The notes: generated from the letters alone by a model not told the origin. Positions 9,655 through 32,730 are shown, numbered from the stretch's first letter. The stretch is DNA of 64,000 nucleotides from Amphiscolops sp. MND2022 (GCA_964187785.1 OZ076409.1:6388001-6452000), one strand, 5' to 3'. Translations and numbers: made by a program.

Positions 9655-9689
9655 GTTGAAATCCTCCTCTTTTCACACAGCGATCGACA

Positions 9690-10793: not shown

Positions 10794-10947
10794 CACCTCA
10801 GCGGTGGACAAATCGGAGCACCACCCCTCACACGGGCACCATCCTCATACTTCCGGGGGGCCAGTGTCGGGGGGTTCCGGCGGGGTAGTGGTCACCTGTT
10901 CCAATGACTCACCCCACCCTCACTCACAAGCAGCCAATCACAGCCAG
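10794..10947 (+). CDS. Putative host gene exon 5 (His/Gly-rich)
   Basis: Acceptor ctttcacctccAG|; phase 2 matches the previous exon; reads TSAVDKSEHHPSHGHHPHTSGGPVSGGSGG...ANHSQ. Possible GC donor CAG|gcatta (phase 0); otherwise the frame stops at 10992. Confidence 0.55.
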
Positions 10948-11134
10948 GCATTACTCCACAATGTTGTTATTCAACCACTTTTCACTAGTTGACGCGCTAA
11001 CTAAAATGTGTCGATCTTCGCGAAAGTTTCATTTTCCGTAATAATTTTTTGGATTCCTAATCTGGGGATATTTAAAATTCTCAGATAAAGTGAAAATCAT
11101 ACTCCGGAAAATGGCAAACGACATGAAACCACTT

Positions 11135-12413
11135 CAGAGTGGTTTCATAAATATGGAATAACTAAAACGTCAATTACAAGAAAATGGATTGCAACACAAG
11201 GGCAGTTTCCAAGATTTGGCTAACAGAGAGTTAGAAAATTGTTTTGGGTTAAATTAGGAGGTGCTGGAAATGACCACCTTCAGCCTGTTGGCAGAATTCC
11301 TATCTTTTGTTAATCGACTGAATACCGCTTAGAATGTCTTCCTTTTCCAAAACAGCACAGCATCTCGCAATGACATCCATAAGCTGGTCTAGGCTCTGTG
11401 GAGACTCTTTCTCTCTCTCCACAGAGCTCAACCCATAGCCCCAAAAGACGTAGTCTAGAGGATTCAGGTTCGGACTTTGAGGTGCCAGACCACGGGACTT
11501 TCCACTTTAGTCACACTTCCGTCAAATGTCTCCTTGAGCCAAGCAATAACTTTTTTGGTTTTGACACGTAGCCCCAACCTGCATGAACCAAATACGCCTC
11601 AATATACGCCTCTTGAAGATATTTGGCCACATTTTCGTCTGCAGCATATCGAGGTAAACATCTTAGTTTACTTTGGCAAACCATCCATTTTGATCAATAA
11701 ACCAAAATGAGCCAATAACCTCGCCACCAAGACACCCACACCAAGGCATCACCTTCCGCTTTCCAGTGAAATAGCTCTTTCCTGTCATATTCAGACGACT
11801 TGAAATATTCAGATCATATTCAGCCGGTAGCCCAGATGCGGAATTCTGTTAATTGCTCTCATGTTGCAGAACCCACCATTTTTCGTCCAAACAAAGACAA
11901 TTTTGCAAATTTGTGGTCCACGTTCTCTAAACCAATAGGTGAATATCAGCCGGAATTCCCATTTTGCGGCTCGATCATGTGGACACAGTTTTATTGGAAA
12001 TAGGATTTTTGGTCTCCTGGGTGTTGTAATAGGCAATGGGTATTTTAGAAAACTTTGATTCATTCGTACGAAATTTTTAGGCTGATGAAGGGTTGAAGCC
12101 CGTCCTTTAATTCAGTATTCAGTACAAAAAATACGTTTGACTGCTGGTTGAGAGTCTAATTTGATGTAATGGTGGATCAAACTTGTTCAATGGAGAACGC
12201 TGTTTAACTCTCATTGTAATTTGCAAGTGTGCGGTTTCGAAAGATGTGAAAAACCGGAAGTTGTGAACAATTGAAGATTTACTTTCGATTTGCAAAAACG
12301 CAGCGTAAAACTTTCATAGGATGCTGATATTGTCATAAAACTTCGCATCATTTTAATGTATGATTTATGAGATATCGTTGACTTACTTCTTCCATAATTT
12401 TGAAAACACCCTG
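11135..12413 (-). mobile_element. Degenerate Tc1/mariner-superfamily DNA transposon (D-ending triad type)
   Basis: Imperfect TIRs cagagtggtttcataaatatggaa / ttccataattttgaaaacaccctg. Minus-strand remnants VMPWCGCLGGEVIGSFWF..VN*DVYLDMLQTKMWP..IWFMQVGAT and SPNLNPLDYVFWGY, with stops and frameshifts. Confidence 0.8.
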
Positions 12414-13454
12414 TGTATGTTACATATGATGTCTTTCTAACTCTGACACGATTAGTCCTACTCAATGCCTTAGTTCTGGTTTTCTTCTATCTTATCAAAT
12501 GGTGTCAGTGAAACCTTTCGTTCACTACTCTCGAAAACTGTTGAATTGGGGAATGGAAGAATGTTTGAACAGATCTAAATTGACCACTCAGTCGTACTCA
12601 TAATTCTCCCTGTTCGATATTTTTAGTCGGCGCTTCATGAAGTGAAACGCGACTATTATAGTGACTCTTTTTTTTCTATCCAAAATGAGGATGAAATAGA
12701 CCAACCACAATATGGGTTATGTTGTGAACACTGCCCCTGAAATAGAATTGTAATTTTATTTTATGGCTGATGTAAAAAAGCAATAAATGTTTTTGACGAT
12801 ATTAGAATTTTTTCTCACAATTGTTTGGCTCGATTCATCTCCAAAAACCTCAAACAGTTATAATTATCATCAGATCAATTGAAACGGAGCCCATTTTTAG
12901 GCGTTGTAAAATGCGAAATACCAAATCGGAGTTAACTAAATCTATCGACGATGTATAGTGATCGTTTCGCAACTGATTCTTCGTTCCAGTCCGTTCAAAA
13001 GAAGCCCAATAATTGGTCAATCTTATCCTTCCCATGATTGGAAGCATAAGATTGACCAAATTTGGGTTTCGATTCAAGTTAGCTGTGATATTTCCGAGTA
13101 ACTATGCGCATTCTAGTAGAAGTTTACATGAGGAAAATTCGTTGATAATATACTTTTGGCGCCAGCAAATCCTTCGTGTAGCAGTCAGGGCCTTTGGTTG
13201 GCAGTAATTTCGTTTGACAAGAAATCAATTATCCTGGCACTAGTTCCGTCGACTTTGCGCAAAAGCATTTTGCATCTAAACTCTGGCAATAATGTAGGTG
13301 CAAAAAAATACGTTTGCCAGGTACAATTATACATTTAATTTACGTTAGGCAACCACGATAAAAACCAAACAAAAGAAATTGAAAGTGAAGGTTGCACCGA
13401 GTGGAGTGGAAGTCAACAATTAATTCCTTTTTTACCTAGATTTACCTAGAATAT

Positions 13455-13723
13455 TGTACTGACGTACATTAATAACCAATAGTTTTTAGATGTTTATAGA
13501 ACGTTCTAGAATGTACATTTATTTGTTATTGAATGATTGTAAATCTCTACTCCCTCAGAGAGAGAAAACTAATAATCAGTATTCAGTTGACTTCCTTTTT
13601 GTTCTGCTTCTAACACCTCGAACTAGTTGTAATAAAGTAAGCTAGCTAGCCTGTCTCTCAGCCGCTTTTAGTAGTTGTGAATAAGACCATCCAAAGAAGT
13701 AACCAACCATTAAAAGCAGAACA
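13455..13723 (+). repeat. 5' LTR (269 bp)
   Basis: TGTACTGAC...GCAGAACA; near-identical to 31454-31721 (8 substitutions and 1 indel by eye); contains AATAAA. Confidence 0.95.
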
Positions 13724-13726
13724 ATT

Positions 13727-13740
13727 TGGTGCGACTTGTA
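13727..13740 (+). promoter_or_regulatory. Primer binding site (TGGTGCGAC...)
   Basis: TGG, the complement of tRNA CCA, lies 3 nt downstream of the 5' LTR; cognate tRNA not identified. Confidence 0.65.
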
Positions 13741-15217
13741 GAATTTCTTGCCTTTTCTCCTGGATGATTTCTCTTCTCTCAACAATCATACAAATACCAC
13801 TCTCCATATTTGAAATTCTCTGGAATTGCAGTGAAATCTTTCTAGAATTCCTTGAAAGTTTAGTCTGTGACTTTCTGAATTTCATCAATAAATACATCAT
13901 CGTTCGAAACACAATTTCTCCACTACAAAAATCAATTTAAATATAACAAATTTTCTTCACTACCGGTTTATCACGTTTTCTAACACGTTGACACGGTTCT
14001 TCTTCCTGTTCTTTTGCCATACCGGTTTATCACGTTTTCCAATACGTTGAAACGGTTTCATTTCGGTTTGATTTATCCAAAGTGACACAGTTCTGTTCTC
14101 TATACTGATTTATCACAGCTAATCCGGAAGCTTGTTGAAACATTTTTTTGACGTTTGTCTGGTTTATCAAGGTTTTCTAACACCTTTGACGCAGCAACTT
14201 TCTTCAATCCTGCTATCTTGAACGTCAGGTGGACTCCTGGTGTAATAGTTGATTGAGTGCATGTCCAGCTCCGCTCACCTATAAGCACATACGTCTCAAG
14301 ATCAACTTCGTGTTGGCAGAAAACCTGGAATTTCTACTTTTACGTTTCGGATCCATTTTCTACGAAAATTCCTACAAACTAGTTTTCAGAAATAGACTCT
14401 GAATACAAAAAAAGTCAACCAAGAATATCTACAACAAACGATCAGGCACTATTCCATTTTTTTTCCAATTGTCGACATCCAATACAAATAATTTCACAAA
14501 AATTTAAACAATACAAATAACTTCAAAACCTAAATACAACAAAAATTACAAACCAATATACACTTAACATTATATCTAGTACTTCCAATAGTAATAATTT
14601 TAACATAATCCTACAAATCAATTATTTTAACAAAATACCACATACAATTCTCACAACTCTTTTGCTTTAAAGTTTAAAATAAGGCATGTAAATAACACAA
14701 ACACAGTAAAGTTAGTTTTCTACTTTCAGGCACCCACAATTCCTATCCCCTCCCGTAAGACTTAGCCAATCAGACAGCCTCACCAGCTTACTCTGATTCT
14801 AAGACTGACTAAAAACCTTAGTTAAGTGTAAACGTCTTTAAGGAGAATCGAGAGGACACCGAACTACGTTCGAATCTTCAAAATTCTCAGAAAGTATAAG
14901 TAAAAGTAAAAGAAACAAAGATCAAACTTTGATCTTGATCAGTATTGATCAGACTTTGGATAGTGGACGTTGATTGTTCAGAGTTCCACTCCCTTAGCCT
15001 TAAAACACACAACCCACTTAAAATTAAAACAATCTTAGTTTTTCTGGACGTGTCAGTAACCTTATGTTAGACACCTTAAAGTGATCCAGACTTAAAATAA
15101 CATTTAGTTTCTGTTAGCAATCCTTTGAGGTTGAATACAGATCCTACTGCATCCGCTTCTTTTCTCTATCCAAAACTATTAACTTCTCAAACAACATCAA
15201 ATTATAATACAAAGTAT

Positions 15218-15554
15218 ATGAACCCTAACATATACAACCAAGCAATTATCCCTTTCAACTTTTACATTCCGCCAATTAGCTCCCTTCAAAATCCTACAGC
15301 AAACGATTTTGAAAGATTATTTGAACGATATCAACAATATTTTTTCTTTATCATAAATCAACAACGACATTACCCAAGAGCTCCAACTTAGAAAATATCT
15401 ATAAAAAACAATTGCAACGTTCTCACCTTCACATTATAACATGTGGGAAAAGGTTACCACAGTAGTACTCATTACAACTTACACGTTTTGTGTCTTATTT
15501 ATAGTTTGTGTTCTTCTTGAAAAAATACTTACGGTGATAAGAGACAAACTTTAG
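15218..15554 (+). pseudogene. Small pre-gag ORF with a C-terminal transmembrane segment (probably frameshifted)
   Basis: MNPNIYNQAIIPFNFYIPP... (15218) and MWEKVTTVVLITTYTFCVLFIVCVLLEKILTVIRDKL* (15441-15554), which ends 4 nt before the gag ATG. Confidence 0.45.
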
Positions 15555-15558
15555 AAAA

Positions 15559-18500
15559 ATGTCCTTAACAACAACCTATTTACCTTTTCAAACCCCCATC
15601 ATTAAAAATGCAAAAGTTGTAAAATTAGAACTAAACCCATTCCTACAAAACATTATTTCACATTATACACAACCACTCCCATTTGAAAATGAACCACACA
15701 CAATTGAAACAATCCCTCTTATTAGAGAACATTTGGACACATACCTTTTCTATATTAGATACAAAGTTTTAACAATCACCGAAGAATACCCAACTTTTCA
15801 AATCTCCTTTCTTCAACAAAGACTTAACTCATCTCATATATACAGAAGAACAATAAACCCAATAAACCTTCAAGTTCCTATTAAACAAGTTTTTCATGCT
15901 TTTCTAAACAATGTAAAAGACCACAACTTAGCACAGGAAATTCCAAAAATTAGTCCAAATGCACTCGACGACCTTCAACGATACATAGACAATTTCGACG
16001 TAGAAATTATTGAAAGATTAGTTAATCCTGAAGACAATCCCCATCATTGGTTACAAGCTGATATTTTACGAATTCAAAATTTCATCTACCATTACTTCAA
16101 AGACTTAACATTAAATGACCAAACAATTCCTCAGATCAAAGTAATATCTTAATTTCTCAGAAAATACTTCAGATTTAATTATCAACTATTATGGTCACAA
16201 CAAGATCAATCTGCTTTTACAGCATTTCCAAATCATTTTACACTAGAAGAATGTTTACCATTCATCATCAGTGAACAAAATGAACATCCTTACTTTCATA
16301 AACCACAATCAATCACAAAACAAACCTTAGATTACATACGTTTTGATCCTCTATTAATTACAGAAAATGATCTATTTGCAGACAATAGACCTTACCACTA
16401 TGAACAAAATTCTCAAGATCAACAAAATTTACATTTTAACACTAACAATTCTACTGAAGATGATAACACCGATCAGGAAAATACAACCCAACAACAAAAC
16501 CAACCTGAAAACTATAACGATAATGAGTTTACTACCCAAGAATCTACAATTTCAACACATAATCCATCACAAACAGGGACATCAACATCAGTACATACTC
16601 AATCTTTTAGAGTTCCCACTAGAGTTGTAAACAAAAGACAAACTACACATAGTCCTCAATCTCACTTAGCTACATCTCCAAACCGTAATATAACATTTAA
16701 CCTTCCACATACAGATGACACACACGATGAAACCCATGATACATTACAGGATGATATTCTGACTACATCTAGTGCTCAGAATACTTCTGTTAATGTTGCA
16801 TCTCCAACAAGAACTGATCCTGATTATACAAGATACATCACTCGACCTAGACATGATCCTCCATCAATTCCCTCCGCCTTTCGCTCAAACATATCGACCT
16901 CTTCCAACAACAATTTTAATGATAATCCCCAAACTTCCAATCGATATTACGATCCATTTAATTATAACTTTTATCCTCCATCAAATACATCTAACAATAC
17001 AAATACCAACCAACATCACTCTCAAATTAATACAACTTCAACAACACAAAACCCTTTCATACAATTATCAAATACCAATACTTCACAGAATATATATTCT
17101 CAAAATCAAGGAACCTCGTATACTTCCACTTCTTATTCTAATATCACACAGGATTCTCAAAGAAGACTTCATAATCCTCCACTTACACATATACCAACTG
17201 ATCCTCTGTATCAAATGCATCCAAATCCAAATCCTAACCCTAATCCTAATCCATTACCACCAAATACAATCCAACATATACCTCCTCAACTCACACAACA
17301 ATTAGCCCCTCCACCCCAAAATTTACAAATGCCACAAGATACCTTTATAAACATGTCCGCTTCAATACCAGAACCTATGAAACCTTTTGATGGTTTGGAC
17401 CATTCTTATACCCCTGAAGATTATCTACAACAAGTCGAAGCAAGATTAACCTTCGCCATAGGTGAAGAACCTCAAAATAATGCAATAAAACACAAATCTT
17501 GGCATAACAGACGCATGGCTTACATACAATGTTCATTAACAGGAACAGCTCTCGATTGGTACACTAACCTCCATATATCATATAAACAACAATGGAATTC
17601 TTCTGTACATTTATTCAAAAAACAATTCTCATCTCAAAAAACTGCTTACCACGCTCAAGTAGAAGCTATGTCACTCATGAAAAGGATAATGAAACAGTTC
17701 GCCATTTCGCCCTTAGAGTACAACAATTAGTGAAAAAGGGATGGTGTAATGGAAATGCAGCTACCATAAATCTCAAAAATAATGAAATCTTTACAAAAGG
17801 GTTACCAAAAAAGTTAAAAGATTTTGCCCATAAACGACAAGTTAAACATGTATCAACATTACTTGAACCTTCAATACCATTTCACACACTTGTTAGACAT
17901 GTCGATTCTGAAGATATTGCTAATGAAAAAATTAGAACTAACGACTTAGCTCTAGAAATAAACAAAGTATCGCTTGAAGATGATACTAACAAAAAAGAAT
18001 TTGAAGATGAAGATCAGATAATGGTTACTCAATCTGGAGACCCAAATCACAAAAGCAAACCAGCGTATAGAAAATATTGTTCCTATTGTCACAAAAATAA
18101 TCATAGTATTTCAAATTGTTATCAAAAACAACGTGATGACGAATACCAGAAATACAATAACCAAAGATCACGAACTCCTCAACAATCCTTTGTACAATAT
18201 TTTCGCAGTAAACCTAGTAATCCTCAAGAAAATCGAAATGACAATACAAATCCTTACTCCTCAGATAATGATCGTAATAAATATAATCAAAATTACTATA
18301 ATGATAGATACAGAAACAATGATAGATATCGTAGCAATAGTGGAGAATATTCGCAAAACAACTATAGATCAAACTCTCGACAAAGCTATTATAATCGATC
18401 CCGAAGTCCGTATAGATCTCGATTTGATAATTATTATCAAAGAAGAACTCCATCTAGATCTCCATATAGATCTCCATACAGAACTAACTCAAATTACAGA

Positions 18501-18720
18501 TATAATTCTCGCTCAAGATACAGATCTCGTTCTCAATCACAAGGAAACTCCTTTAAACGATATAATTATCCATATAGATCTCCATCAAGACCTAGAGATT
18601 TTAGATCAAGATCTAGAACACCCTCAAGAAACAGACAACAAAACAGAATAAATCAAGTAGACGTTAAATCTGCAAAAGAAAATGATAGTACAAAATTTGA
18701 AATCCACACCTGTCAAATAA
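15559..18720 (+). pseudogene. gag: Gag: ~550-aa N-terminal extension, capsid-like domain, CCHC knuckle, RS-rich tail
   Basis: ATG 15559 is in frame with the 17215 ORF across a stop at 16150. Motifs PFDGLDHSYTPEDYLQQVE..SLTGTALDWY, CSYCHKNNHSISNC and RSRSPYRS repeats; frameshift near 17680. Confidence 0.85.
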
Positions 18721-21700
18721 CTGAAATAGCTAATACAATCACTCCTTATAGTTGGTTTTATCCACTATGTATTCACGCTTCTGAAACAAATGATAACATA
18801 TTACCTTCAAAATTAGAAAGCTTATTCCTCTTAGATACTGGAGCATCCATATCTGTTTTGAATTTACCAACATTTCATGTAATTTCCAAACAATTAAACA
18901 TCAATGTTCCAACTAACCTCCAAAACAAAAGAGCCAAAACTCTTACAGTTGCAAACCAAACTGAAGTACCAATAATACATTATATTTCGATGACCTGTTT
19001 CACTGAAGTAAATCACAAAATACGATCCTTCAATATCGATTTCGCTGTAGCAAATATCAAATACAACATTCTTGGAACACCCTTTTTCAAAAAACACATC
19101 CAAAATATTGATTTTCAACAAAATATTATGACGTACATAGAACAACATCCAAAGCTTCCAACAAAAACAACATTTTCTACATTTACAGAAAAAGATTACC
19201 CATATATTTCTTACATTTATGCTATTAAAGTGAGGAACCAATTCACTTTAAACCAAGGTCAGGAAAAACCATACATTTCCCAATTAAAAACTATTCAAAT
19301 CTACATTTTGAACTTGAAGATAATACAAAATTCTATTCAACAAACCCATATACATATTTCTTACAAAAATTCAAAAATATCTTTCTTTTCTTAGATATGA
19401 TAGTCAATGAAAAAAACAAAGACTCATGTGCAACCATAATTCAAAACTTTACATCTTACCCAGCTACATTACCACGAGGAATTTTTGGATATATAGAAAT
19501 ACCTATTACTCAAACAACTCCTCCTCACTACAGAGTAACGATGTAAATTCACTTATTCACTCTGTAATGCATGCGTATCACCCTGATACCACAACTCCGA
19601 TTAAACAAAATCCTTATGTAGATATGAACTTATGTACTAGGGTAACACCACAATCCCTATTAGAAATTAACAAGATAGAAATCAACGACAAAACACTTCA
19701 ACTTCCTATACCTTCTGTTACTGGAAACCTTCGACCCTCAGATAAAATTCGAAAAGATTTCCCTCCATTACCCTATTCTACAGAAAATCAACAATTCATA
19801 AAGAAGTTCAGTTTTGAATACTCAGATTTAACCGATACAGAATATGTAAACCTCTCCAATATTCTGATTGATAACCAAAATTGTTACGCCAAACTTAAGA
19901 ACGACGTAGGAAAGATTTCTACTCCCTTTCGAATTAGAATAAAAGATAATTGTAAACTTCACACACAAAGACCTTCTAAAGTACCTATTCACTATAGAGA
20001 TAGACTAAAAAAACTTTTATTAGAACTTGAAAAATACAACATCATAAAACAAATTGGTTCAACAACAGATGAAAGACATACTATTGGAACAACATTTTTA
20101 AACCCTTTAATTTTTATCCCAAAAGGAGACGCAATAAAAGTTGTTTTAGACGCAAGACATCTAAACTCAAACACTAACCAAGAACTTGAATCTTGGCCTA
20201 TTGAACCTTTAGCTCCTCAATTAGCTAGAGCCAAAAAAAATACAAATCAACTATTGATCTAATGTATGCATATGCTCATACACCATTAGACGAAGAAACA
20301 ATTAAACTTACAAGATTTTCATCCGGTGACAAATTATACGCTTTTATCCGTGGATTTTATGGATTAAAAGGACTTCCAAACTTTTTTACAAAACAAATGT
20401 CAACTTTCTTTAGATCGCTTATAGACAAACGTTCTGCGTTAGTTTATATCGATGATATTTTATTACTCGCAAACGAAAAACAAGAAATGTTTGAACTTAT
20501 AAAAGAATTACATACAATAGCATCTCGAGAAAATCTCAAACTTGCACCTGAAAAATCATTCTACATGTTACTCAAAGTAAAATTCCTTGGACATGAAATT
20601 GGTAACAACACAATTAAACTAATTCCATCCAAAATTGATGCTAATAAAAGAATTCCATCACCAAAAGAAAAGAAAGATGTTACGCAATTTCTTGGCAGTG
20701 TTAACTTTTATTCAAAATTCATTGAAAAACTTCATATAAACCCTAAACCATTGTATACATTACTACATGATGATGTTAAATTTCAATGGACACCTGAATT
20801 AGAAAAAATATTTCAAAATGTTAAAAATACAATGACAGCAAACACTGAATTAACAATACCCAACACCACGCATCCATTTTTCATAACAGTAGATGCTTCG
20901 TTAGTAGGTTTAGGCGCAGTCTTATTCCAAATGAACGAAGAAAAGAAGATGAAAGTAATCTCTTATAACTCCAGAATTCTTAACACACAAGAACAAAAAC
21001 TTTCAACTTTAGATAGAGAACTTCTTGCAATAGTTTACGCATTGCAAATATATGAATTTTCGATCATTGGATCTCCTCATCCTATATACCTCTTCACAGA
21101 TCACAAGCCTTTACTACATTGTTTCACAAAGAAAGGAAGTCTTAGTCCTAGATTCTATAGAGCACAAATGCAACTAACAAAATTCTCCAAACTAAAAATC
21201 ATTCATACCCCTGGAAAAAATTTAACTGTAGCAGATATGCTTTCACGAACCTTTACAAAAGCACAGCTACAAGTACACCAATTACGACACAAACAATTAC
21301 CACCTCAAATAGATTTCTCTATCATGAAAGATAATCAACTCAAACCAGTACATTATTTAGTAAAACATGAAGAAATAAAATATAATCAAAAGAATGATTG
21401 TCATCCTATCCTTGCTGACTACGGAGACGACCAATTCTCTATCCGTATAAATAACAAAGGAGAAGAAATACACATAAAGCCTTTAGATTCCTTCTCTTTT
21501 CAATCTATTGTTCCATTCGAATCAAAATATAAAAAGCCTACAAAAAACCAAGCAAAATCTCTTTTACAACAATCGACAATTCTTAATGATACTGACATTC
21601 TTAGTGATGAAGATGAAATAACTCAATCAAATAATATTCAACAACAAAACTCAGACATAGTTAAAGAACACACCCTTGCTATACAATATCCTACCAAATC

Positions 21701-23564
21701 CGACTATTGTAAACAACAAGTTCCATTTTTTGATATTTTAAATACTTCTTCCTACCAGAAGATACACAAATAACCATTGAAACAATAAAAGCTCAACAAA
21801 ACCAAGATACTGTTTTACAAAAGGTTTACCAATGGATACTTAATAATGAAAGACCCTTACAAACAGACCCAACAATTGCAGCTAATTCTTTCTTATTAGT
21901 ATATCACAAAATCTTCAACCAATTATATATTAATCATGATACAAAAATTATCCACACAGATTATCCTAATCTTCACGATTCCAACCCGAATCAAAGAGAC
22001 AAAATATGTCTACCATTTAAACTTTTCCACGCAGCTTTTAACAAACTTCATGCTCATGGACATTCAGGAATAAAAATATCCAACAAAGCTTTCAACCAAT
22101 TTTACTTCATACCGTACTTGAATAAATGGATGTCAATATTCATCCATGATTGTATTGAATGCCAACAAAATAAACATATTAACCAAAAATTACAAACTGC
22201 AACTATACAAACCTTCTCAGGAAATGCTTCATATTTTAATTACCGAATATCAATGGATACAAAAGGACCTATAAACCCACCATCAAATCAAAATTCATAC
22301 ATTCATGTTATAGTAGACGCTTTTAGTCACATTGTAGTAACAGTACCTATAAAACAAAACAATGCTCAAAACGCTGTTAACTCATTACTACATCATTGGA
22401 TAACAAAATTTGGACCTCCTGTATATCTAGTTACCGACCGTGGAACAGAATACATTAATTCAGAATTTGCAAATCTTTGTACCACAATGGGAATTAGACA
22501 TTCACCAAGAACTCCTTATGCACCATGGACAAATGGTTTAGTTGAAAATCAAAACAGAAATCTTGGAACTCATCTCAGACTTTTCTTACATAACACTCCA
22601 GAAAATTGGTCAACTCAAGTTCATATGTATGCTTATGCACATAATTCACAACCACTTTCTGAATCAAACTTATCTCCATATGAAATAGTATTCCATACTA
22701 TACCCAGAATTCCAATCAACTTTGAACTCAATCTCCAAAGAGATACATATAGAAACTGTACTTCTCAATATTTTCAAGAAATACCACTTCATACACACTA
22801 TGACAAATCAAATCTAAACCCTTTCTTTCATAAAATTTTATCTAAATCAATTCCACAATGGATCTTAGCTACTGAAACTGCTATGATACAGATATACCAT
22901 AGAGTATATCAAAACACAAAAAGAAAGATTAATTCCTATGCTTATTTTAACAAAACATATCACAATGCAAGACCCTTAGATATTGGTACATTTGTACTAA
23001 ATGAAATTTTCTCCATGTTTATTTTTCCGATAAATTAAAACCTCTCAGAATTGGCCCATTCAAAATTATTAACAAAATCTCCGACATAACATATGAAATT
23101 GTTAATCAAGATGGTTATACATCGCACATACATAGAAATCATTTAATTCCTTATCATCCAAAAGAACCAGTTATTTTTCCTTTCCTACAACAATATAATC
23201 CTCATTTATTTAATGACTGTCATTCAAATATGAACGATCAAACAATTAACTCTGATGAAGACAAATTTACTGACGAAGAACAATTTCCTTCCACAACATC
23301 TAATAAAGAAACGGATATACCATTCACAATTCACTTACAACCAGAATCATTTAGCCAATATTCTTCATTTCCATATAAACAAAAAGAACAAATTCCTCAA
23401 AATACCTACCTGGATAACAAATCAGATATTCATGACTATGATAATTTTATTAATCCCCGATGACATTCCTATAATAGATACAATTTCCGCCCACAACCAA
23501 GAAAAAACTACCGACTTTTCCTTGGTGAAAACGATATAATTTCACTTTCTCAAAAATCCTGCTG
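18721..23564 (+). pseudogene. pol: Pol: protease, RT, RNase H, integrase (several frameshifts and stops)
   Basis: LLDTGAS; VVLDARHLN; LVYIDDILL; ITVDASLVGLGAVL, DRELLA, TDHKPL, VADMLSR; HAHGHSG..CIEC; SMDTKGP, VTDRGTEY, NGLVENQN; C-terminal IGPFKII (GPY/F). Gypsy domain order. Confidence 0.93.
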
Positions 23565-23569
23565 AAATA

Positions 23570-25197
23570 CGGAATACAGAAAAAAGCACACAAAGAAAAT
23601 TTGAAAGAAATGCAAAAGTTTGAAGCTTACTGTGAAACTGAATGAAAAATATTTCACAAAAGATAATAAACGAAAGAAATCGATATGAAACTATAACTAT
23701 TTTATAAATTGAGACAAACTACCTCAACACAAAGATTTCAAAATTGATAGACATATTCACTCGCCATCATCAACCACAAATAACTCTTCTTCTAGTTCAA
23801 CACATTCTCTCCAAAGATTACCTGAATATACAGCATATTTAAACTCAGATACAGACATACTGGATTCCTCATCCTCAAATCCCAGTCCATCCGCTCCATA
23901 TACTCCTGATAGAGTACCAACAACACCCACCAATACACCTATAACCCAAACTCAAACATTAATATTAACAACTCAATCACAACCTATTTCACGAAATCTA
24001 ACATTTGTAGAAACAAATTCACCACTTTCTGACTCCAATGATGAAACACCTACAATACCAAAGACACAAGATACTTCAAATATTTTAAATAGACCTCCTC
24101 TTCCACCGATTACTACCACTCGTTCTATTCATATCCCTGATCCTAGCTCAGTCCTACAATACATGAATTCTTGTCCACATAAAGTACCAACCGCAACGAA
24201 AACAAAAAGAGAAACTCCTTTACCTACATTACCACAAAATCTTGATTTACCATCATCAAGTAATACTCCAATAACATTTTTACCAGAAACTTCATTGAAA
24301 TCACCAACAAAGAAAACACAACAACACCCAACTCCTTCACCATCTGAACTAAGTTCATTCACATTTTCTCAAATATATCCCAAGCTTGAATTACAACGTG
24401 TACATTCAACCAACACCTCTTCTTTAACAGATCTATATCATAAAGATAAAGATTCTGACTCAACTGCTAGTACTAGAGTACCAAGACATAATTATAACCT
24501 TCGATCTCAACATTAAAGAAATTCTCAAGAATTACAATCTTTAACTAGTTCAAGTACAAACTCAAGACTACTTCGACAGCACGCCCAACCCAGATTGGAC
24601 ACTTCTTCTCTTTCCTCATCTCAACCCACTATACCATCTTCTCTATCACTACCATTTCAAATCACATCAGGATTTGAAACAGCTTCTCTTCTTTCTGAAG
24701 AGCCACTAACTATATCAGATAGCGCAGCTAAATTTTCACGAGTTTACTCACCTAGTTCAATAGCATCAAACTCTTCCATACAATTACCTGAATATTTTTT
24801 AGAATATTTCTCAAGACCTCCATCACCAAACCCTCACGAATATCCTATTCGTGTTAATTCAAAAATTGTTTGCACGCTTAACGAAGATCCCCGATACACG
24901 GTCTTACCTGCAAGATTTATAAACAACAGTTCACTCTCAACTCAAAGAAAACAAAGAGAACTACGAAGATTACAAGAACAACAACTCACATTAAAATTTG
25001 AAGTAGAAGTCACATTCAATTCGTTAGGACCTCATCCATTCTCTCTTTCAACAAGAGTAGCACACAAAACAACCCCATCACCATTCGTAGTCACATCCAT
25101 TTCTTACCTTTGTGACGCAGATTTACCTGAGATTAGAACAGGACATATAAACTTTTTTAATCCCTACTCCGGACTCAATTATAGATCAATATTTTAA
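23570..25197 (+). pseudogene. Pro/Ser/Thr-rich accessory ORF between pol and env (interrupted)
   Basis: ORF pieces 24163-24516 and 24595-25197 share one frame; ends 2 nt before the env ATG. The 5' boundary is approximate. Confidence 0.6.
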
Positions 25198-25199
25198 CC

Positions 25200-27775
25200 A
25201 TGAACCAAACCACCTTTACAATATACTTAATATACATAATACAAGTTGTTAAATACACATATATAATACACATAGTCCACTCTTTAGTTCACCCTTCAAC
25301 TGTTCCTAAAGTTAACACCACCAATTCTGAAAATCATATTTCAGACCAAGATCCTAACATTTTAAACTTGATGGTATCTCATTATGATTGTGCAAAACAA
25401 AACAACTTAAGACAATTCAGTTTATTAAATGTAGAACCATGTAAACAAGCACCCTCAAGTATACAACACACAAAAACCCAAGCAACAGTTTATGTTAGAG
25501 CAAAGGCTAAAAGAATAAAAGCCTTTAAATGCGAAGCATATATAAAGACTGAGAAAGTCTGGTGTTCACAAACATTCACATCTAGTAGACGATATGATCG
25601 TTTACAATGGGGACAAAACACATTAGAACTTCCAAAAATATTGGACCCTATTGAATGCAAAAATATGATCAGATATTTAAACGCGACTGATAGCGAAGAA
25701 CTAAACAACTACAATATACAAAGCTCTTTCTCATTGTTCGACGATAGTAATTATCAAAACACAATTGAACGAATTCAGACACCATTTAGAGTAAAAAAAT
25801 AAAATACATGGCATATTGGAACCTTCGTATTTGATGAAAATTATCCTGACTGGATAGTTAATGTTACACAAAATACATACTCCAGATGTCGATCAGACCG
25901 AGAACATTTAATTACCCGACAAAGTTGGAAACTTAGAATTGTTAACACCGCAATAGAATATGACGATGAAAAAAATCAATTAATACATGACGGACACATA
26001 TTACCATGTTATCATTCAGACGGATTTTGTAAACCAATGACCAAAACTCCATATACATTAACATGGTTTGATGAAAAATTTTGCCTCATATTTCAACTTC
26101 AAGAATTCATTGGTAGAATGACACGAATCAAAGATAGATACTGGATAGAAACCGATACCTTCATTGAAATTTCAAACATCACACAAAAACTTCAAACCGA
26201 AGGAATACAAGGAACAAGATATCCTGATGTAAAAACACCACAATCAAAAGTAAGCAATCCAAGCCTTTCTCGATTTTAAATATACCCAATTGCACAAACC
26301 TTCTGTGGAAAACCTGAGCCATTATTTTCAACACAATATGATGACACCTTTGTTACATACTTAGATGGTTTTGATATGAACACAGGATTACCAAAACCAC
26401 ACTCAATAATTGACCAAACAATTAGTGGAAATATAAAATATGATGATTCAAACAAAAGGTATATATTCCCTGCATTGAACATATCAAACAATTTCGCCAC
26501 TTTAGATTATGATGCCCACATTAACACAAAAATTGATTTCACAATAAATCATGTATTTAAATCCATGACAGTACAAGAACTAAACACTCTTCATACAATA
26601 TGTGAACTGGAAAGAACTCAACTATTAACGATCTTTAGCTTGTCAGTTAAAAATCCTCAATTAGCCGGTTTTCTTTTAACTGGAAATCGTAGTAACTTTC
26701 TTTACGTTGAAGGATCTACAGCATGGCTGTATGATTGCCCTCATTTTATATCACCACTATACAAGGCAGACAATTGCTTTGATAGAATTCCTATACACTA
26801 CAGAGAAACAATAATGTATGTTGAGCCAATAACAAGACAAACTTTTAACTATGCAACACCAATTGAAAGTGGAAATAACCCACAAAAAATAATAGAATTA
26901 GATCCAGATTCTAACGACGGAGATTTTTATGTGTTAACACCAGAACCACTTAAACGAGAAGCACCACAAATGTTTAAACCTACCCAAATTAAAAAAACAA
27001 TCACTCCTAATACATTTACCGCCCAAGATGCCGGTATATACTCAAATGCAGAATTAGATCAATTCTGGAATAGAGTACTATTTGCTAAACATTCTGACAC
27101 AACTCTCCAATTACTTGGAAAATCATTAAGCTATGATTTCATCTCAATGCATAATGATAAACACTCATACTCAGGACATAATACCTATAATCATTTAAGG
27201 ATTGGAGTACATGACCACTTGTTAAACCTTTTACCACTTTTTAACCCTGACTGGTTCAGTCAAGCATTCAATAATTTCATTGGATATCCATGTTATGTTT
27301 TAACTCAATGTGGAATTTATTTTTCAACATTTCTTTTCATTAGAGAAGTTTTAACATTTTTACTCAAATTCTACAGAACAATTAGCATAAAATATAATCT
27401 CCAAAGCAACATTTCCATTTTGAGTTCAATAGTCATGGTTTTTTTAATATAGTTACATCGGAAATGGTAACCGATTTAAACAATACAAGAAAACGAAAAC
27501 GGATATATACTAAACACAAAATTACAACAAGTGAAAATGATAATATCCTATTGCCGGAAAAAGAATTAAACAATAAACGAAGAAACTCTGATACTGACTC
27601 CCCTTATTTACCTCCTAAATATTCCAGTAAGAATTCAACATTTCAATCACCGCAAAAGACACACCCAACTAATGTAAACGATATTAATTCTCAGGACTAT
27701 GACCCAATAATGTCAAATGTAATAGCTGTACCGGAAGGTCCTGCTAAAGTCTTTATAAAATTCAATCCCTCCTAG
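25200..27775 (+). pseudogene. env: Envelope glycoprotein, chuvirus-G-like (class III/gB-type fusogen)
   Basis: Hydrophobic N-terminus; SHYDCAKQNNLRQFSLLNVEPC; ICELERTQLLTIFSLSVKNPQLAGFLLTG..EG..WLYDC; CFDRIPIHY..YVEPITR; C-terminal TM (CGIYFSTFLFIREVLTFLL). Pieces 25200/26037/26376 are in one frame across 2 stops; frameshift near 27430. Confidence 0.8.
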
Positions 27776-28216
27776 CTGAAAAGCAATAACTTAAAAAACA
27801 AATTAACCTCAGAAAAAGTTCAAAAAATTATCAACTAAATTCTTCTCAGTATTAACTTTCATTCAAACCCAAATTCTCACTCGGACCGGTCTCTCCTTTT
27901 CAACTCAACAACAAATTCACTTGCCCACCACAACTCAACTCTCAACCAGAAGACTTCAACTGGATTTTCAGTCCATCTAAAAGACCGAAATCACAGAAGT
28001 TTCTATTCCTGGAATAGATGCCACTGTGATTGTTGATGTTTTCAACCCATCATTGACTCAGTATTCCCATATTGTAAGTACAATTTAAACTTTAATTTTA
28101 CCAAACAATTTAATGGATAAAAAAGATATAACGAAACTTTTCCTTATTATTAGAAATAATATAATCAAACGTTATAATCATTATTTTAGCTCTACAAAAA
28201 CACGCAAGTTTAAATA

Positions 28217-29485
28217 ATGGAATCCTTGCCCGAAATTGATGTAGTTAACTCTACTCCCTCTGAATTGCTTGCATCCCCTTTGAATATAACTATTCAACAA
28301 AATGTTAACGAAGATAATAACTCTTCCTCCAACTCTCAAGACCCCACAGAAACTATTCCTATTGAACAAGTAGATCATGTTAACGCAAGATCTCAAAAAC
28401 GAAAGTACCCAGATATGACTGCAGACAAACCTTTTATGGAATCTGGCGCTTGCCCTCCTTTCATAAAACCAATTAAACAAGATGACGATAGAGATTGTGA
28501 ATTAGTTCCTATTCTCTCGTCAAAACACTTCACCTTTCAATCTCAGTTAACTTCGTTATACATGATTCCAACAAAATACAAATTCATCATCAGAGAATTT
28601 AAAAATGATTATCATACACCAATTGCTTCAAAATTGATTACCCCATATGATTGGTGGTTAAACAATAAAGTGAAAATTTTCTCACTCCAATACAACTTCC
28701 TCAGACCATCTCCATATGATCTTCGAACCGAAGAAAATGATGCAAATTTTTTGCCATATCAAATCAAAAAGGCTCACCACATGACTTATCAAAAGTTTAT
28801 TCAATATAAAGAGCCCGATAATTATATATTCTTCAACTCCAAATATACATCGCCATTCACTTTCAACTCAGAATATTTAATAGATCATACCAAAACAAAA
28901 AGAAAACTTAGATATTATGACCCGCTGAAACAAAGTTTTCTCTTCCTTCCAAACGATAACCCAAAAAGACCAATCATTGTACCACAAGAATACCTCATTC
29001 TGAACGACGATTCGTTACTACAAGAAGATATACCTCAACATAAATCTGATCCTCTTCCTCCACTTCAACATATAGCCTCTCAACCTTTGGGAGACTGTGA
29101 AAAATCTTATTTTCACGCAATGACCAAAAAGGGATATTCGAATAATGAATTAATTTTCATTATTTCTCATCTGCTTTCACTTCTTACAAATGGAAATCAC
29201 AAAGAATATAAAAAGGCAAAACAAGAATCGCCTAAGAAAACCAAAAATGATATTCCCCAACCACAAAGTTTTCGCCCAACAGACGAATTACAGAAATATA
29301 TAGAAATTCTGAATATCATAAAACCGTATCATCATCCGAACCGAGATATTCTTATAACAATCGCTGAAATCGTAAATACCCTTGAACAAGCTCGAAGCAT
29401 AATACAAAGTATCGTATTTTATACGACAAGAATTAGCCAATCAGCTTTGTGCATTCGCACATCTTTAGACGAATTCAACTTTTGA
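28217..29485 (+). CDS. Post-env accessory ORF, 422 aa, unknown function
   Basis: Uninterrupted ATG-initiated ORF inside the LTR element; no recognisable motif. Confidence 0.65.
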   Translation: MESLPEIDVVNSTPSELLASPLNITIQQNVNEDNNSSSNSQDPTETIPIEQVDHVNARSQKRKYPDMTADKPFMESGACPPFIKPIKQDDDRDCELVPILSSKHFTFQSQLTSLYMIPTKYKFIIREFKNDYHTPIASKLITPYDWWLNNKVKIFSLQYNFLRPSPYDLRTEENDANFLPYQIKKAHHMTYQKFIQYKEPDNYIFFNSKYTSPFTFNSEYLIDHTKTKRKLRYYDPLKQSFLFLPNDNPKRPIIVPQEYLILNDDSLLQEDIPQHKSDPLPPLQHIASQPLGDCEKSYFHAMTKKGYSNNELIFIISHLLSLLTNGNHKEYKKAKQESPKKTKNDIPQPQSFRPTDELQKYIEILNIIKPYHHPNRDILITIAEIVNTLEQARSIIQSIVFYTTRISQSALCIRTSLDEFNF

Positions 29486-29911
29486 AAAAATGCATCGACC
29501 TTAACTGGTAATTATGGGATAATCACTCTAAAATTGTTAACACTTACCACTTAATCTCTTAACAACCTGTCAAAATTAATTGAGTCTACACGTATATGCC
29601 TGCTATGCACGATTATAATACATGCTTGATGTTAAAACACTCTTTTAAAATAAAATAACATAAAAAAATTTCAATCACGACTTAAAAATTTTCAACAAAA
29701 TTCCTCAATTGCTCCTCTTTTTAATGGACCGATTTCAACAAATAAGTACTTATATGAAAGATATTCAAATACCCTTCAAAAGACTTCCAAAATACAACAA
29801 CCTAATTCTTAAAGTTAAAAAGTTATAATATCACAAAGTTCAATAAAAAATGTCAACTACGAAATTCTATTTTCAAAGAAAATTTATTGTAAACAAACTA
29901 ATCTATTTTAG

Positions 29912-30376
29912 GTGAATATCGTCACAACTGCTTCTTCAGCATTCCTTCCTCCTCTCAGGCCACCCATTCAAGAAGAATTCCAAAGTATCTTCTACAACTT
30001 TCACGAAATTTTCCCATTCTTCAATATGACAACTATTCATTCAGGCGACATAGACTGCCCGATAGCTCCTCTTCTTTCAATTTCTTCAGCTCGATTGCGA
30101 TCCTTGATCCTGAAAAAGCATTTAACGACATTAAATGCGCAGCTTAGAACAGACAAAAAGGCAGACCCACATCTTACAAGGATGATATTGCTTAATATGT
30201 TCCAAATATTCCAAATAACAAGAATAAATTTCGACCAATATCTCCATATTCATAAACATCCTGACACTTATTCAACCCAACGAGACGCCACTACCCAAAC
30301 AGAACATACTACCATCAAGCCCAAACGTTTAGTACGAAATCTATCCAGTAGAATGCGTTCTGAAATGGAAAAATAA
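29912..30376 (+). CDS. Post-env accessory ORF/exon, 154 aa, unknown function
   Basis: Open frame begins immediately after actaatctattttAG| (branch point and acceptor). Confidence 0.45.
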   Translation: MNIVTTASSAFLPPLRPPIQEEFQSIFYNFHEIFPFFNMTTIHSGDIDCPIAPLLSISSARLRSLILKKHLTTLNAQLRTDKKADPHLTRMILLNMFQIFQITRINFDQYLHIHKHPDTYSTQRDATTQTEHTTIKPKRLVRNLSSRMRSEMEK

Positions 30377-30940
30377 CGTCTAAATTCGTATTGGCCTTCA
30401 GACGATAACGATGATACTGACGAAGAACTTCAAAAAGACCCTCCAGAAGCACTTATAGATGATAATTATCCGCACAAAACATATACTTACGTTTCTTTCT
30501 AATATCAACAGACGCCATCAACAACACCCGTCCACTCCCATCTTCGAATCCCACATCTTCAACGATTGATCGTCGCAGATCAGCACCCATGTTCAACTTC
30601 ATCGCCGCCCAACAGTTGCCCATCTTCATTCATCTGCTGACCCTTCTTCATCCATCTTCCAATCTTCAATCGTCACCCATCCAATTCTCAGCCGAAGATG
30701 ATCGATAATTAATAATAAAGAAAACTCAAAGAAAAAACATTGTTAAAAATTAAAAAATCCTTTATTCACACCCGTACCGATATTTATTTGCTTTATTTTT
30801 AAAGAATAATTAGTAATAATTATTATTTTTCGGTGCTATCATATCCAAAAAATTAACAAATATTATCAACAAATCTTTTCAAATTTCAACAAAACCATTC
30901 AAAATTAAATCAAGCACATTGTTCAAATCAAATTCGAATA

Positions 30941-31234
30941 ATGGCAAACCCAAATTCTCGACGTTTTCAACATTTGTTACATAACAAACCCGCCAAAGTT
31001 AATCACAACCTGAAATCTTTTCAGACAAATTTCACGCTCGATGGAAAAATTTTCTCTTCTCATCGATATTATTTCAATGACTCTTTGACCTTTAACTCGT
31101 ATGATGTTTGCTCACGTTTGTTCAATGCGAAGTTCTTTCAAAAACTTCAACAGAAGCATCAAATTGAGCATCTACCAGTTCAAAAAACAAGACGACGAAA
31201 GCATAGTGAAAAAGAACACTTTGACGCTTTTTGA
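30941..31234 (+). CDS. Post-env small basic ORF, 97 aa
   Basis: ATG in good context (ataATGG); basic KTRRRK near the C-terminus; lies just before the PPT. Confidence 0.4.
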   Translation: MANPNSRRFQHLLHNKPAKVNHNLKSFQTNFTLDGKIFSSHRYYFNDSLTFNSYDVCSRLFNAKFFQKLQQKHQIEHLPVQKTRRRKHSEKEHFDAF

Positions 31235-31438
31235 ACTGTAGTCGCACCTACGAGGTGTCAATCAAAATTTTGACAATTCGAGGTACACCAATGAGTCGAA
31301 CTTACATCACTCTTAACGAGACTTATGCCAATCATCCATCTAATGAAAAATGTTAACTAGCTGAAACGCTAAGAACATTTAAACAAAAATTTTTCTTCAT
31401 TTCAATTAATGATGCTACTTTAAAATTTTATTTTATTC

Positions 31439-31453
31439 AAAAACCGGGATGGA
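31439..31453 (+). promoter_or_regulatory. Polypurine tract-like site
   Basis: AAAAACCGGGATGGA directly abuts the TG of the 3' LTR. Confidence 0.65.
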
Positions 31454-31721
31454 TGTACTGACCTACATTAATAACCAATGGCATTTAGATGTTTATAGAA
31501 TGTTCTAGAATGTACATTTATTTGTTATTGAATGATTGTAAATCTCTACTCCTTCAGAGAGAGAAAATAATAATCAGTATTCAGTTGACTTCCTTTTTGT
31601 TCTGCTTCTAACACCTCGAACTAGTTGTAATAAAGTAAGCTAGCTAGCCTGTCTCTCAGCCGCTTTTAGTAGTTGTGAATAAGACCATCAAAAGAAGTAA
31701 CCAACCATTAAAAGCAGCACA
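31454..31721 (+). repeat. 3' LTR (268 bp)
   Basis: TGTACTGAC...GCAGCACA followed by the ATAT TSD. Confidence 0.95.
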
Positions 31722-31799
31722 ATATGTTTTTCACGCAATTTAGACGTTGGCAGAAGCGTATGCGAAAAATTAAACTGAATCAATTTTCTCATTTTTTAT

Positions 31800-32730
31800 C
31801 TCGTCGGAAATTATCAGCATGTCCTCCATCGGCAGCGACCGCTTTGGGATTAGTCGTTTCGGAACGGAGTTGACAAATGTTCTAATAAGATCGATCTCAA
31901 GGCCATCCCATACCTCCTGAATGGCTTTTTGAAAGTCTTCTAGGTTGTCGTAATCTTTCGTATTGCTGTACACTCGGCTCATCATGATTGACCATAAATT
32001 CTCAAAAGGATTACAGTCGGGAGAACAAGGCGCCCAATCCAGAAGGTTAAAATTCTTCAATTCAAAAAGCTTTTTGTGCTTTAAGATGTATATGGAGTTG
32101 CATTGTCATGCATTGAAGCATAGCCAGGTTGAAGGACTGGCATGTAACTCCCCTGTATAAGATACTGATAACATTTCGAATTTATAATGCCATCATAACG
32201 GTGTATGGAGGTTGTTCCATCGAATCCAATTCCTGCCCAAACAAATCCATCAAGAGAAACCTTTTTTGCCGTAAACCTTTCGCATTTCTCCACTTCTACA
32301 CCAATAAAATCTCATTCCAACAGGCCCATCGAGTAAAAACGTTTTTCGGTGGTCAATGTGATTTTCTGGATATCCATACTCCCAGTCGATAATTTCTCCG
32401 GTAGGGTTTTTGCCCAATCGAACAACTTAGTATTATCCTTCCTCCGTTACAAATTTGCGAACGGTTTCTTTTGAAACAATCAAATCCAGTTTTTTCTTAG
32501 CGAAAGACTATCATTAGCTGATATTGTTGGATTAATCTTGTCTCTTCGCTGACTCTTTCAATTTGGACTTGGTCCACCACCGTCTTTGTATAGTCTTTTC
32601 CTCGCCAAAGAAGTTCGAACACAATTATAACTTCGTCCAATGGCCCGAGCAATGTCCGAATTACTTGTGCCTGCCTTATGCATTCCTCACATTGATCAAT
32701 TTCTGATAGCAAAGTGCCTCTTTTTGGCAT
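31800..32730 (-). mobile_element. Degenerate Tc1-like (DD34E-type) transposase
   Basis: MPKRG.. start; HTH remnant (SDIARAIGRS); VWAGIG..G.INSKCYQ; MHDNATPY; LDWAPCSPDCNPFENLW..IQEVWDGL..LIRTFVNSVPKRL; multiple frameshifts. Confidence 0.85.

Follow-up and report, generated by a model that had tools for sequence, protein, structure and literature searches.

Is an 18.3-kb stretch enclosed by one pair of long terminal repeats (LTRs), and holding several open reading frames (ORFs) beyond gag-pol and env, one retrovirus-like element with genes of its own, or a product of chance frames and nested insertions? This question was raised by positions 13455-31721 of a 64,000-nucleotide stretch of Amphiscolops sp. 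MND2022 DNA (GCA_964187785.1, OZ076409.1:6388001-6452000), referred to at its full length as the window; positions are counted from its first letter. The original prediction had described a Ty3/gypsy element organised like a complex retrovirus, with about five accessory ORFs. With a probability of roughly 0.8, the stretch is the decayed remnant of one member of an abundant and recently active Ty3/gypsy (Metaviridae-type) retrovirus-like family, unusually long (18-18.7 kb) and gene-rich, in which env and the P/S/T-rich ORF preceding it (PST) are modelled as expressed by leaky scanning. By their substitution patterns, four extra genes (sTM, PST, X1 and X2) are real and under purifying selection, and all of them but X2 show conservation between families as well.

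The LTRs were located by direct-repeat search, alignment and a boundary script, and their coordinates (Table 1) were exactly those predicted. The pair differs by 8 mismatches and 1 indel in 269 bp, giving a Jukes-Cantor distance of 0.0305, in line with the claimed divergence of ~3%. A single direct-repeat pair, split by one indel, was found within 12000-33500, and no second pair of at least 60 bp lay inside the element. Perfect 4-bp target-site duplications, differing between copies, flanked all 8 copies examined (the window copy and 7 siblings). The element is a single integrase-made insertion. All the ORFs that had been listed as sense were found on the + strand. The claim of one shared strand bias also held: GC skew was -0.20 to -0.49 in each 1-kb bin from 14001 to 31000, whereas on either side (bins 5001-14000 and 31001-64000) it ranged from -0.13 to +0.11. 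In the bin 4001-5000, which holds a separate tandem repeat, GC skew reached -0.23.

The seven siblings were picked solely by paired LTR matches in the same 1.07-Gb assembly. Each aligned collinearly to the window element over its whole length, LTRs included (96.5-97.6% identity, ~18.3 kb), and kept the extra ORFs. With one LTR pair and 7/7 collinear siblings, the locus is, as predicted, a single element rather than a nest of insertions. The LTR gave at least 1,739 first-look matches in the genome, and the 40 that were scored were 97-100% identical. The siblings have LTR distances of 0.0037-0.0188, which makes the window copy the oldest among the eight. An intact gag-pol was present in 0/8 copies, the longest frame being 1,038 codons. 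Approximately 113-120 bases near 30743-30753, between X2 and the last open frame, are missing from the window copy and kept in 7/7 siblings; this was the sole recurrent difference.

Three further lineages in the same genome share the gene order, each with its own LTRs. F1y is a young subfamily with 87% DNA identity to the window family (F1) and LTRs identical at 237/237 positions. Families F2 (18,134 bp) and F3 (18,683 bp) have LTRs that are 99.5% and 99.7% identical, respectively, and env proteins 53-62% identical to that of the window family. Retention in all siblings and presence in three further lineages support the claim that the extra ORFs have long been part of the element. The number of env-like stretches flagged in the genome at first look was 9,941-12,555, depending on the query. 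In one env search 19 of the 74 scored rows had one common bit score together with an open frame of 870-871 codons, which indicates a very recent burst.

Selection was estimated as omega (dN/dS, pairwise Nei-Gojobori) for the window family against F1y (13% DNA divergence) and in further pairs with two older subfamily copies (~80% identity). Close siblings differ mostly by post-insertion decay; therefore lineages that had diverged while active were compared, and sibling-versus-sibling dN/dS was left out. One row ('F1y vs L023 PST') was ignored, because only 23 codons of the wrong fragment were aligned. Values from the F1y pair and from the older copies, respectively, were 0.17 and 0.24 (one older copy) for PST, 0.10 and 0.11 for X1, 0.19 and 0.24 + 0.16 for X2, and 0.11 and 0.10 + 0.14 for env. 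Along gag-pol omega was 0.05-0.21 (window family against F1y). Off-frame omega on the same alignments was 0.95-2.3 against F1y and 0.8-2.3 over all pairs (0.8-2.0 for X2). The extra ORFs thus gave 0.10-0.24 and not values near 1. In sTM, the 7 nucleotide (nt) differences in 114 between the window family and F1y were all silent, and the peptide is identical. The count of about five accessory ORFs was upheld in part: four are under purifying selection, whereas a 125-aa ORF is the tail of env and a 97-aa ORF is not a gene.

Similarity between families was measured by Smith-Waterman alignment against shuffles. X1 gave Z scores of 67-81 (40% identity to F2; tblastn E 1e-81) and PST 22-43. Both can be aligned between families at 31-44% identity, whereas the leader gave no DNA-level blastn match there. 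Homologues of sTM lie just upstream of gag in F2 (one, 40 aa) and in F3 (two, 45 + 37 aa); Z was 7.9 for F1 against the second F3 peptide (F3b) and 9.4 for F2 against the first (F3a), and 0/2,000 shuffles reached either value. The small transmembrane (TM) ORF that had been noticed before gag is thus a real gene, its peptide being kept between F1 and F1y and across families.

The prediction of a dead copy was borne out, since gag-pol, PST, env and X2 are all damaged in the window. The gag-pol carries 1 in-frame stop and 5 frame changes, PST 1 stop, and env 2 stops and a frameshift near 27400-27450; X2 is shortened by a premature stop.

Table 1. Features of the window element and of related lineages (positions in the window unless given otherwise)
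Feature	Position	Strand	Remark
5' target-site duplication	13451..13454	.	ATAT
5' LTR	13455..13723	+	269 bp, TG..CA
Primer-binding site core	13727..13735	+	TGGTGCGAC; 3 nt past LTR, complementary to tRNA-Met(CAT)
Leader ORF, 58 codons	13764..13940	+	first leader ATG; F1 clade only; omega 0.15 (vs young subfamily) on just 13 substitutions
Leader ORF, 57 codons	15218..15391	+	F1 clade only; omega 0.30 vs 1.0 + 3.4 off-frames
sTM, 37 codons	15441..15554	+	predicted single-pass transmembrane peptide, just upstream of gag
gag-pol	15559..23463	+	N-terminal extension, capsid, zinc knuckle, protease, RT, RNase H, integrase with GPF module
Retrotrans_gag	codons 636-707 of F1y gag-pol		Pfam
RVT_1	codons 1537-1662 of F1y gag-pol		Pfam
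RT_RNaseH	codons 1725-1857 of F1y gag-pol		Pfam
Integrase_H2C2	codons 2144-2192 of F1y gag-pol		Pfam
rve	codons 2213-2308 of F1y gag-pol		Pfam
PST (P/S/T-rich ORF)	23713..25197	+	one in-frame stop here; 418-490 codons in intact copies
Candidate non-AUG (CUG) start of PST	23860..23862	+	A-NN-CUG-G context; A at -3, G at +4
ATG-free tract before env ATG	window		1,037 nt
ATG-free tract before env ATG	F1y		1,183 nt
ATG-free tracts before env ATG	F2		801 + 285 nt, second ending at env ATG
ATG-free tracts before env ATG	F3		663 + 905 nt
env	25200..27775	+	signal peptide, class III-type fusion glycoprotein, TM anchor near 27282-27375, long cytoplasmic tail
X1, accessory gene, ~430 aa	28217..29485	+	own ATG
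X2, accessory gene, 158 aa intact	30026..30376	+	own ATG; premature stop here
'X3' open frame, predicted 97-aa ORF	30857..31234	+	not a gene
Putative polypurine tract	31439..31453	+	abuts 3' LTR; 11/15 bases purine, read from sequence only
3' LTR	31454..31721	+	268 bp, TG..CA
3' target-site duplication	31722..31725	.	ATAT

In F1y, gag-pol is one ORF of 2,654 codons. Its domains follow the order protease (PR), reverse transcriptase (RT), RNase H and integrase (IN), as in Metaviridae / Ty3-gypsy, and one RNase H, assigned to Ty3/gypsy Pfam families, comes directly after RT. A CCHC knuckle, a D-T-G protease motif upstream of RT and a GPF motif were seen in the translations, and the integrase C-terminus reads 'LRIGPFKI' in the frame 23005-23463. 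Pfam matches of the SH3-like module (SH3_Tf2-1 and Integrase_p58_C) fell just under the cut-off. Such a GPY/F module at the integrase C-terminus is given as a Metaviridae hallmark in the relevant part of PMC12440569. Among solved structures, RT-RNase H matched that of Ty3 best (4ol8, E 1.2e-37, 133 bits), ahead of caulimovirus (93 bits, 2e-25), foamy virus (71 bits, 8e-19) and murine leukaemia virus (MLV)-type enzymes (49 bits, ~3e-12). No Pfam match was obtained for the N-terminal 629 aa of gag or for the 286 aa between RNase H and IN. Rfam, run on 13000-32200, gave 0 families.

In all four lineages TGGTGCGAC starts 3 nt past the LTR and is complementary to a host tRNA-Met(CAT) (gene at L030:1501-1573) at its 3' end with CCA added. 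Complementarity extends over 9 nt in the window family, 11-13 nt in F2 and 12 nt in F3; when tRNAs were searched for a fit to the longer F1 primer-binding sequence, nothing rose above control. Five tRNA-Val genes were seen within 2.1 kb in L026 (G000:C2:56572494-56575514), and one of them likewise fits the F2 primer-binding site with 13 nt of its 3' end. The F2 copy has gag-protease (1,264 codons) and pol (1,469 codons) in the same frame, with a single stop between them at relative positions 8012-8014 (L015/L016), which is either a mutation peculiar to this copy or a readthrough arrangement like that of gammaretroviruses. In the F3 copy a -1 overlap lies further downstream in gag-pol; the F1y frame is uninterrupted.

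PST fills ~1.4 kb between pol and env (from stop to stop, 1.5 kb in the window) and consists of a long disordered S/T/P-rich part and a conserved C-terminal domain of ~130 aa. It has no Met codon in 4/4 lineages, and each stop-to-stop frame opens without an ATG. Between the pol stop and the env ATG, 3-6 ATGs were counted in all three frames, compared with 11-14 in dinucleotide-preserving shuffles. A count as low was reached in 0/300 shuffles for 4 of 5 sequences and in 1.3% for the fifth (F3). For the other five orderings of A, T and G, 10-29 occurrences were counted in the same region. Most of the residual ATGs fall within the first 220 nt, ahead of the PST frame or where it begins. In the pieces examined of the window element, F1y and F3, the longest tract without an ATG stops precisely at the env ATG; in F2 the longest is inside PST, and the next runs up to the env ATG. 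On the grounds of this depletion up to the env ATG, a bicistronic PST-env mRNA with leaky scanning was proposed, and the sequence pattern suggests it. The motif AT[AC]CTGGAT was found in frame in all four lineages, exactly where the similarity between families begins, and its CTG is taken as a working hypothesis for the PST start codon.

PST might instead be a part of Pol or Env, made by readthrough or frameshifting, or forming a mucin-like N-terminal domain of the envelope precursor. It has no AUG of its own and lies directly between the two genes, in the pol frame in the F1 clade, and it overlaps or abuts the env start. Readthrough from pol was excluded as a candidate, because in F1y seven stops lie between the two frames, and in F2 and F3 pol and PST are in different frames. 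Fusion to env by frameshifting is unlikely, because the shift from PST to env is -1 in F1/F1y and +1 in F2/F3 (the overlaps being 10 to 134 nt) and because env in the window, F1y, F2 and F3 starts from an ATG of its own that leads straight into a signal peptide. PST has no hydrophobic N-terminus. Taken together, a fused PST is unlikely, and PST as a separate gene translated ahead of env is the preferred account.

In copies other than the window one, env is a single frame of 863-870 codons. It starts with a hydrophobic leader in all four lineages, and a C-terminal hydrophobic anchor is followed by a tail of ~150 residues. An ORF at 27398-27775 (125 aa), listed earlier as a separate gene, was rejected; it is the cytoplasmic tail of env displaced by the frameshift. 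The env of an intact sibling matches PF24664 (Monjiviricetes_fusion) with 92.4 bits against a cut-off of 27, and pieces of the window copy also match. By this match, env belongs to the Monjiviricetes (chuvirus/gB-like) fusion glycoprotein family. PF24664 was the sole Pfam family found on env, with no F-type (baculovirus-F-like) family. Sequence search of the PDB gave no match, and no relatives were found in IMG/VR. A search of 5.8 billion proteins returned only unnamed ENA proteins, one of them distant (24% identity).

X1 has a disordered acidic and S/T-rich N-terminus, a conserved basic cluster (KRK, KKR or KKK, then Y), an alpha/beta centre and long C-terminal helices. Its profile matched 607 clusters at 50% identity (E <= 0.001), mostly fragments. 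AlphaFold2 gave an unusable model with 8 sequences (pLDDT 34.5) and a weak one with 150 (pLDDT 57.3, pTM 0.29). In the latter the N-terminal 130 residues are disordered, the alpha/beta centre is confident only at ~220-260, and the C-terminal helices (361-434) have a pLDDT of 80-91. VIA-align against 48,161 chains found only generic coiled coils at residues 380-435 (Z <= 6.4), and the best match of a PDB profile search was a designed coil (E 0.0086). ESM Atlas gave no usable match and Foldseek on BFVD 0 matches at E <= 0.001. Pfam on 150 X1 homologues gave single chance-level matches and no viral nucleoprotein family, and no relatives were seen in IMG/VR contigs. PST likewise had 0 matches in a PDB profile search and none in Pfam, and its C-terminal domain none in ESM Atlas. 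Overall, no Pfam, PDB, ESM Atlas, BFVD, structural or IMG/VR match was obtained for X1, X2 or PST, as far as each search applied.

These searches bear on a capture of several genes at once, in which PST, env, X1 and X2 would all come from a chuvirus- or mononegavirus-like virus, X1 and X2 from its nucleoprotein and small protein, with PST being phosphoprotein- or matrix-like. The family of env fits such an origin, and so do the order and sizes of chuvirus genes past G (N, then a small ORF), which we take to be roughly those of X1 (~430 aa) and X2 (~158 aa). Against it, X1, X2 and PST lack Pfam matches, and a viral nucleoprotein family was found in 0/150 X1 homologues, nor did X1 match anything in BFVD at the threshold above or have a relative in IMG/VR. 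The X1 model, weak as it is, has a beta-rich core, and mononegaviral N proteins are, as far as is known, all-helical. This origin is quite improbable, and only env is assigned to a viral glycoprotein family in the reading preferred here.

X2 was found in 293 protein clusters, many of them exactly 158 aa long, and 15 chosen members align without gaps down to 63% identity. In a genome search, 140 of the 150 best-scoring copies were stop-free, a sample biased towards intact copies. In F2 and F3 an ORF of 179-220 codons occupies its place. The last open frame, 30857-31234, was tried as a gene and rejected: it is frameshifted and has many stops in the otherwise intact F1y, its omega is 0.45, and its cross-family Z is ~0.

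The leader has ATGs only at element positions 310, 807, 1232 and 1610 (window 13764-15063); 1.3 kb of it holds two internal ATGs, compared with ~15 per kb element-wide. The two leader ORFs of the F1 clade (Table 1) have no counterpart in F2 or F3. Their constraint, measured on few substitutions, could be due to coding or to RNA structure. The tandem TM micro-ORFs of F3 (L018 3741-3878 and 3887-4000) are one each of the types that are single in F2 and F1.

That the extra ORFs are chance open frames in a G-poor, skewed sense strand is an explanation that holds for 30857-31234. It also gains from the few substitutions behind the two F1-only leader ORFs and from the lack of cross-family similarity of X2 and X3. 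For the four genes it is very unlikely: PST, X1 and X2 have omega of 0.10-0.24 in three independent pairs with off-frames near or above 1, X1 and PST can be aligned between families, X2 is held at exactly 158 codons without gaps, and 7/7 changes in sTM are silent. That the post-env part (X1, X2) or PST is a nested or chimeric insertion, and 18 kb an accident of one copy, is scarcely credible despite a size roughly twice that of typical Ty3/gypsy elements and no known domains in X1, X2 or PST, because there is no second long direct repeat inside the element and no terminal inverted repeat around the post-env part (27000-31500 holds only a 19-nt AT-rich inverted pair with 84% complementarity) and no target-site duplication of its own was found there, and because all siblings and three lineages with LTRs of their own share the order under a uniform strand bias.

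For a recently active Ty3/gypsy family with these four genes, the following expression scheme is proposed. Full-length RNA would serve as genome and as gag-pol mRNA, its long ATG-poor leader carrying sTM just before gag. PST and env would be made from one subgenomic mRNA, with PST starting at a near-cognate codon (CUG being the candidate) or in an upstream spliced exon. Ribosomes that do not start at PST would scan ~1-1.5 kb almost free of ATGs in three frames and then start at the env AUG. X1 and X2, each with its own AUG, would come from further subgenomic mRNAs, spliced or internally promoted. Their roles may be analogous to those of complex-retrovirus accessory proteins and of CERV of Cer1.

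Several points weigh against this account. Omega was taken from single natural copies, which carry some post-insertion mutations. A homologue of X2 is not demonstrable in F2 or F3 by Smith-Waterman alignment (Z ~0); hhalign gave a weak, co-positional match to F2 (P 0.002, probability 13.6%) and nothing in F3. The ATG depletion is strong and not absolute, with 1-2 internal ATGs kept in each PST region, and that region is the most G-poor part of the element. The CUG start was proposed from the conserved motif, and the 44 F1-clade codons upstream of it seem to be under mild constraint too (omega 0.36 on just 12 substitutions). Subgenomic mRNAs, splice sites and start codons in the scheme were all deduced from sequence; a search for sequencing runs matching 22000-31726 listed none of RNA. 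Placement with Ty3 by RT-RNase H scores against structures is a proxy for a phylogeny with reference sets. The X1 model is weak (pLDDT 57, pTM 0.29) and its fold matches are generic coiled coils; for this reason the functions proposed for X1 and X2 were drawn from composition.

As a guess from composition and from analogy with CERV and retroviral accessory proteins, X1 may be a nuclear, oligomerising factor with a regulatory or RNA-handling function. X2, by composition and the same retroviral analogy, might be a fast-evolving host-interaction factor; this too is a guess. A wider reading is offered tentatively and is rather doubtful. In it the lineage would be an invertebrate counterpart of complex retroviruses that arose independently within Ty3/gypsy: a currently active endogenous virus of infectious type (identical LTRs and a full set of open ORFs occur in some copies), with a viroporin-like TM micro-protein, a bicistronic PST-env message with a non-AUG start and leaky scanning, and X1 and X2 as regulatory or host-interaction proteins made from subgenomic RNAs. 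Together with its sister families it would make up a sizeable fraction of the genome.

Complex retroviruses (lentiviruses, spumaviruses and deltaretroviruses) have small accessory genes around env, leaky scanning of vpu-env in human immunodeficiency virus 1, and an A-rich, G-poor strand. The present element resembles them in having gag-pol-env with small genes before and after env, the signature of an upstream ORF and env, and a G-poor strand. It differs in an RT-RNase H nearer to Ty3 than to foamy virus or MLV-type enzymes, an RNase H of the Ty3/gypsy family, a class III (not class I) env and unrelated accessory genes. The resemblance is convergent, and the element is not a member of that group. 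In Rice tungro bacilliform virus, a plant pararetrovirus, leaky scanning over ORF I-III, with a non-AUG start and a long AUG-free stretch, has been shown experimentally. That virus is likewise a Ty3/gypsy-related reverse-transcribing element with an upstream ORF devoid of internal AUGs; the corresponding evidence here is a sequence signature.

Accessory and regulatory genes, multiply processed mRNAs and a leaky-scanning env are usually taken as the hallmark of a few vertebrate retrovirus genera. Here they are approached by a Ty3/gypsy lineage with a class III fusogen and four selected extra genes, whose sequence pattern suggests polycistronic translation. The lineage provides a natural setting in which to study the origin of accessory genes in reverse-transcribing elements and the minimal extra functions of an enveloped retroelement. 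As gene families, sTM, PST, X1 and X2 have no Pfam, PDB-sequence or BFVD match (PST and sTM being outside the fold searches) and comprise hundreds of sequence clusters.

The prediction of an undescribed lineage of enveloped retroelements did not hold as worded. Chary & Hayashi (eLife 2026, PMC13524379) report in their main text gag-pol-env elements of Ty3/gypsy type, with an F-type or gB/chuvirus-like env, from across the metazoa, whereas the accessory gene set and layout were not found in print. The 'ancient errantiviruses' of that main text have in common with the present element the LTRs, the gag-pol-env order, a Ty3/gypsy pol, a class III env and many near-identical copies as a sign of recent activity. 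They are described there as three-ORF elements. In contrast, the elements found here have a Met-free ~1.4-kb ORF between pol and env, two genes past env, a TM micro-ORF before gag and a length of 18-18.7 kb. The features tested for the gB-type group were all present (gag, pol, a class III-type env by Pfam, signal peptide and anchor); the F-type class I env of the narrow genus Errantivirus (insect gypsy/17.6-type) was not. Within the same main text, supplements aside, the words 'accessory', 'splic...' and 'leaky' do not occur, and 'additional ORF' occurs twice, in a general remark on env-type ORFs and in a reference title. Its screen was limited to POL-ENV gaps of <=1 kb and regions of <=10 kb. 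Screens for compact three-ORF elements with such limits (pol-env <=1 kb, total <=10 kb) can overlook or truncate elements of the present kind.

Anakin and related mosquito BEL/Pao elements (Dezordi et al. 2020, PMC7642597) are, like the present one, LTR elements with a captured Chuviridae-like glycoprotein. The Anakin backbone is BEL/Pao, not Ty3/gypsy, and accessory genes are not mentioned in passages that cite this work. Cer1 of C. elegans is described, in the abstract of Sun et al. (2023, PMC10309623), as a Ty3/gypsy element with an extra protein, CERV, which is made from a spliced subgenomic mRNA and acts on the element's own RNA; this precedent underlies the function guessed for X1. CERV is a single accessory protein there, whereas four extra genes and a gB-like env are present here, and the likeness was drawn from description, not sequence comparison. 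Bdelloid rotifer LTR retrotransposons, as described in part of Rodriguez, Kenefick & Arkhipova (2017, PMC5408684), also have ORFs beyond gag, pol and env; the hosts and ORFs are other ones, and this likeness too is by description. In full-text literature searches no Ty3/gypsy lineage of animals came up that carries this set of genes or an AUG-free ORF ahead of env, the supplements of PMC13524379, which possibly list relatives, being outside their scope. The interest lies mainly in four conserved orphan genes and the translational signature, to which apparent recent activity and abundance add.

Other sequences in the window were noted in passing. Directly abutting the 3' end of the element, a Tc1/mariner transposase remnant was recognised by eye at 31770-32105 (-) from its DDE region ('...DWAPCSPDCNPFENLW...'). 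An AT-rich (24-30% GC) Maverick/Polinton-like element at 45700-58900 was likewise recognised by eye from translations. Its frames include a type B protein-primed DNA polymerase at 55156-58268 (-), an rve integrase at 51516-52097 (+), a packaging-ATPase-like frame at 50334-51059 (-) and an adenain-like protease at 45737-46129 (+). Coding-looking tandem repeats, open in several frames, lie at 3998-5160, 2353-2796 and 9455-9888, with units such as 'STWPNIHLAEYPLGRI', 'RSRSLEVKVARGQG' and 'SKILPRS'; these are probably minisatellites.

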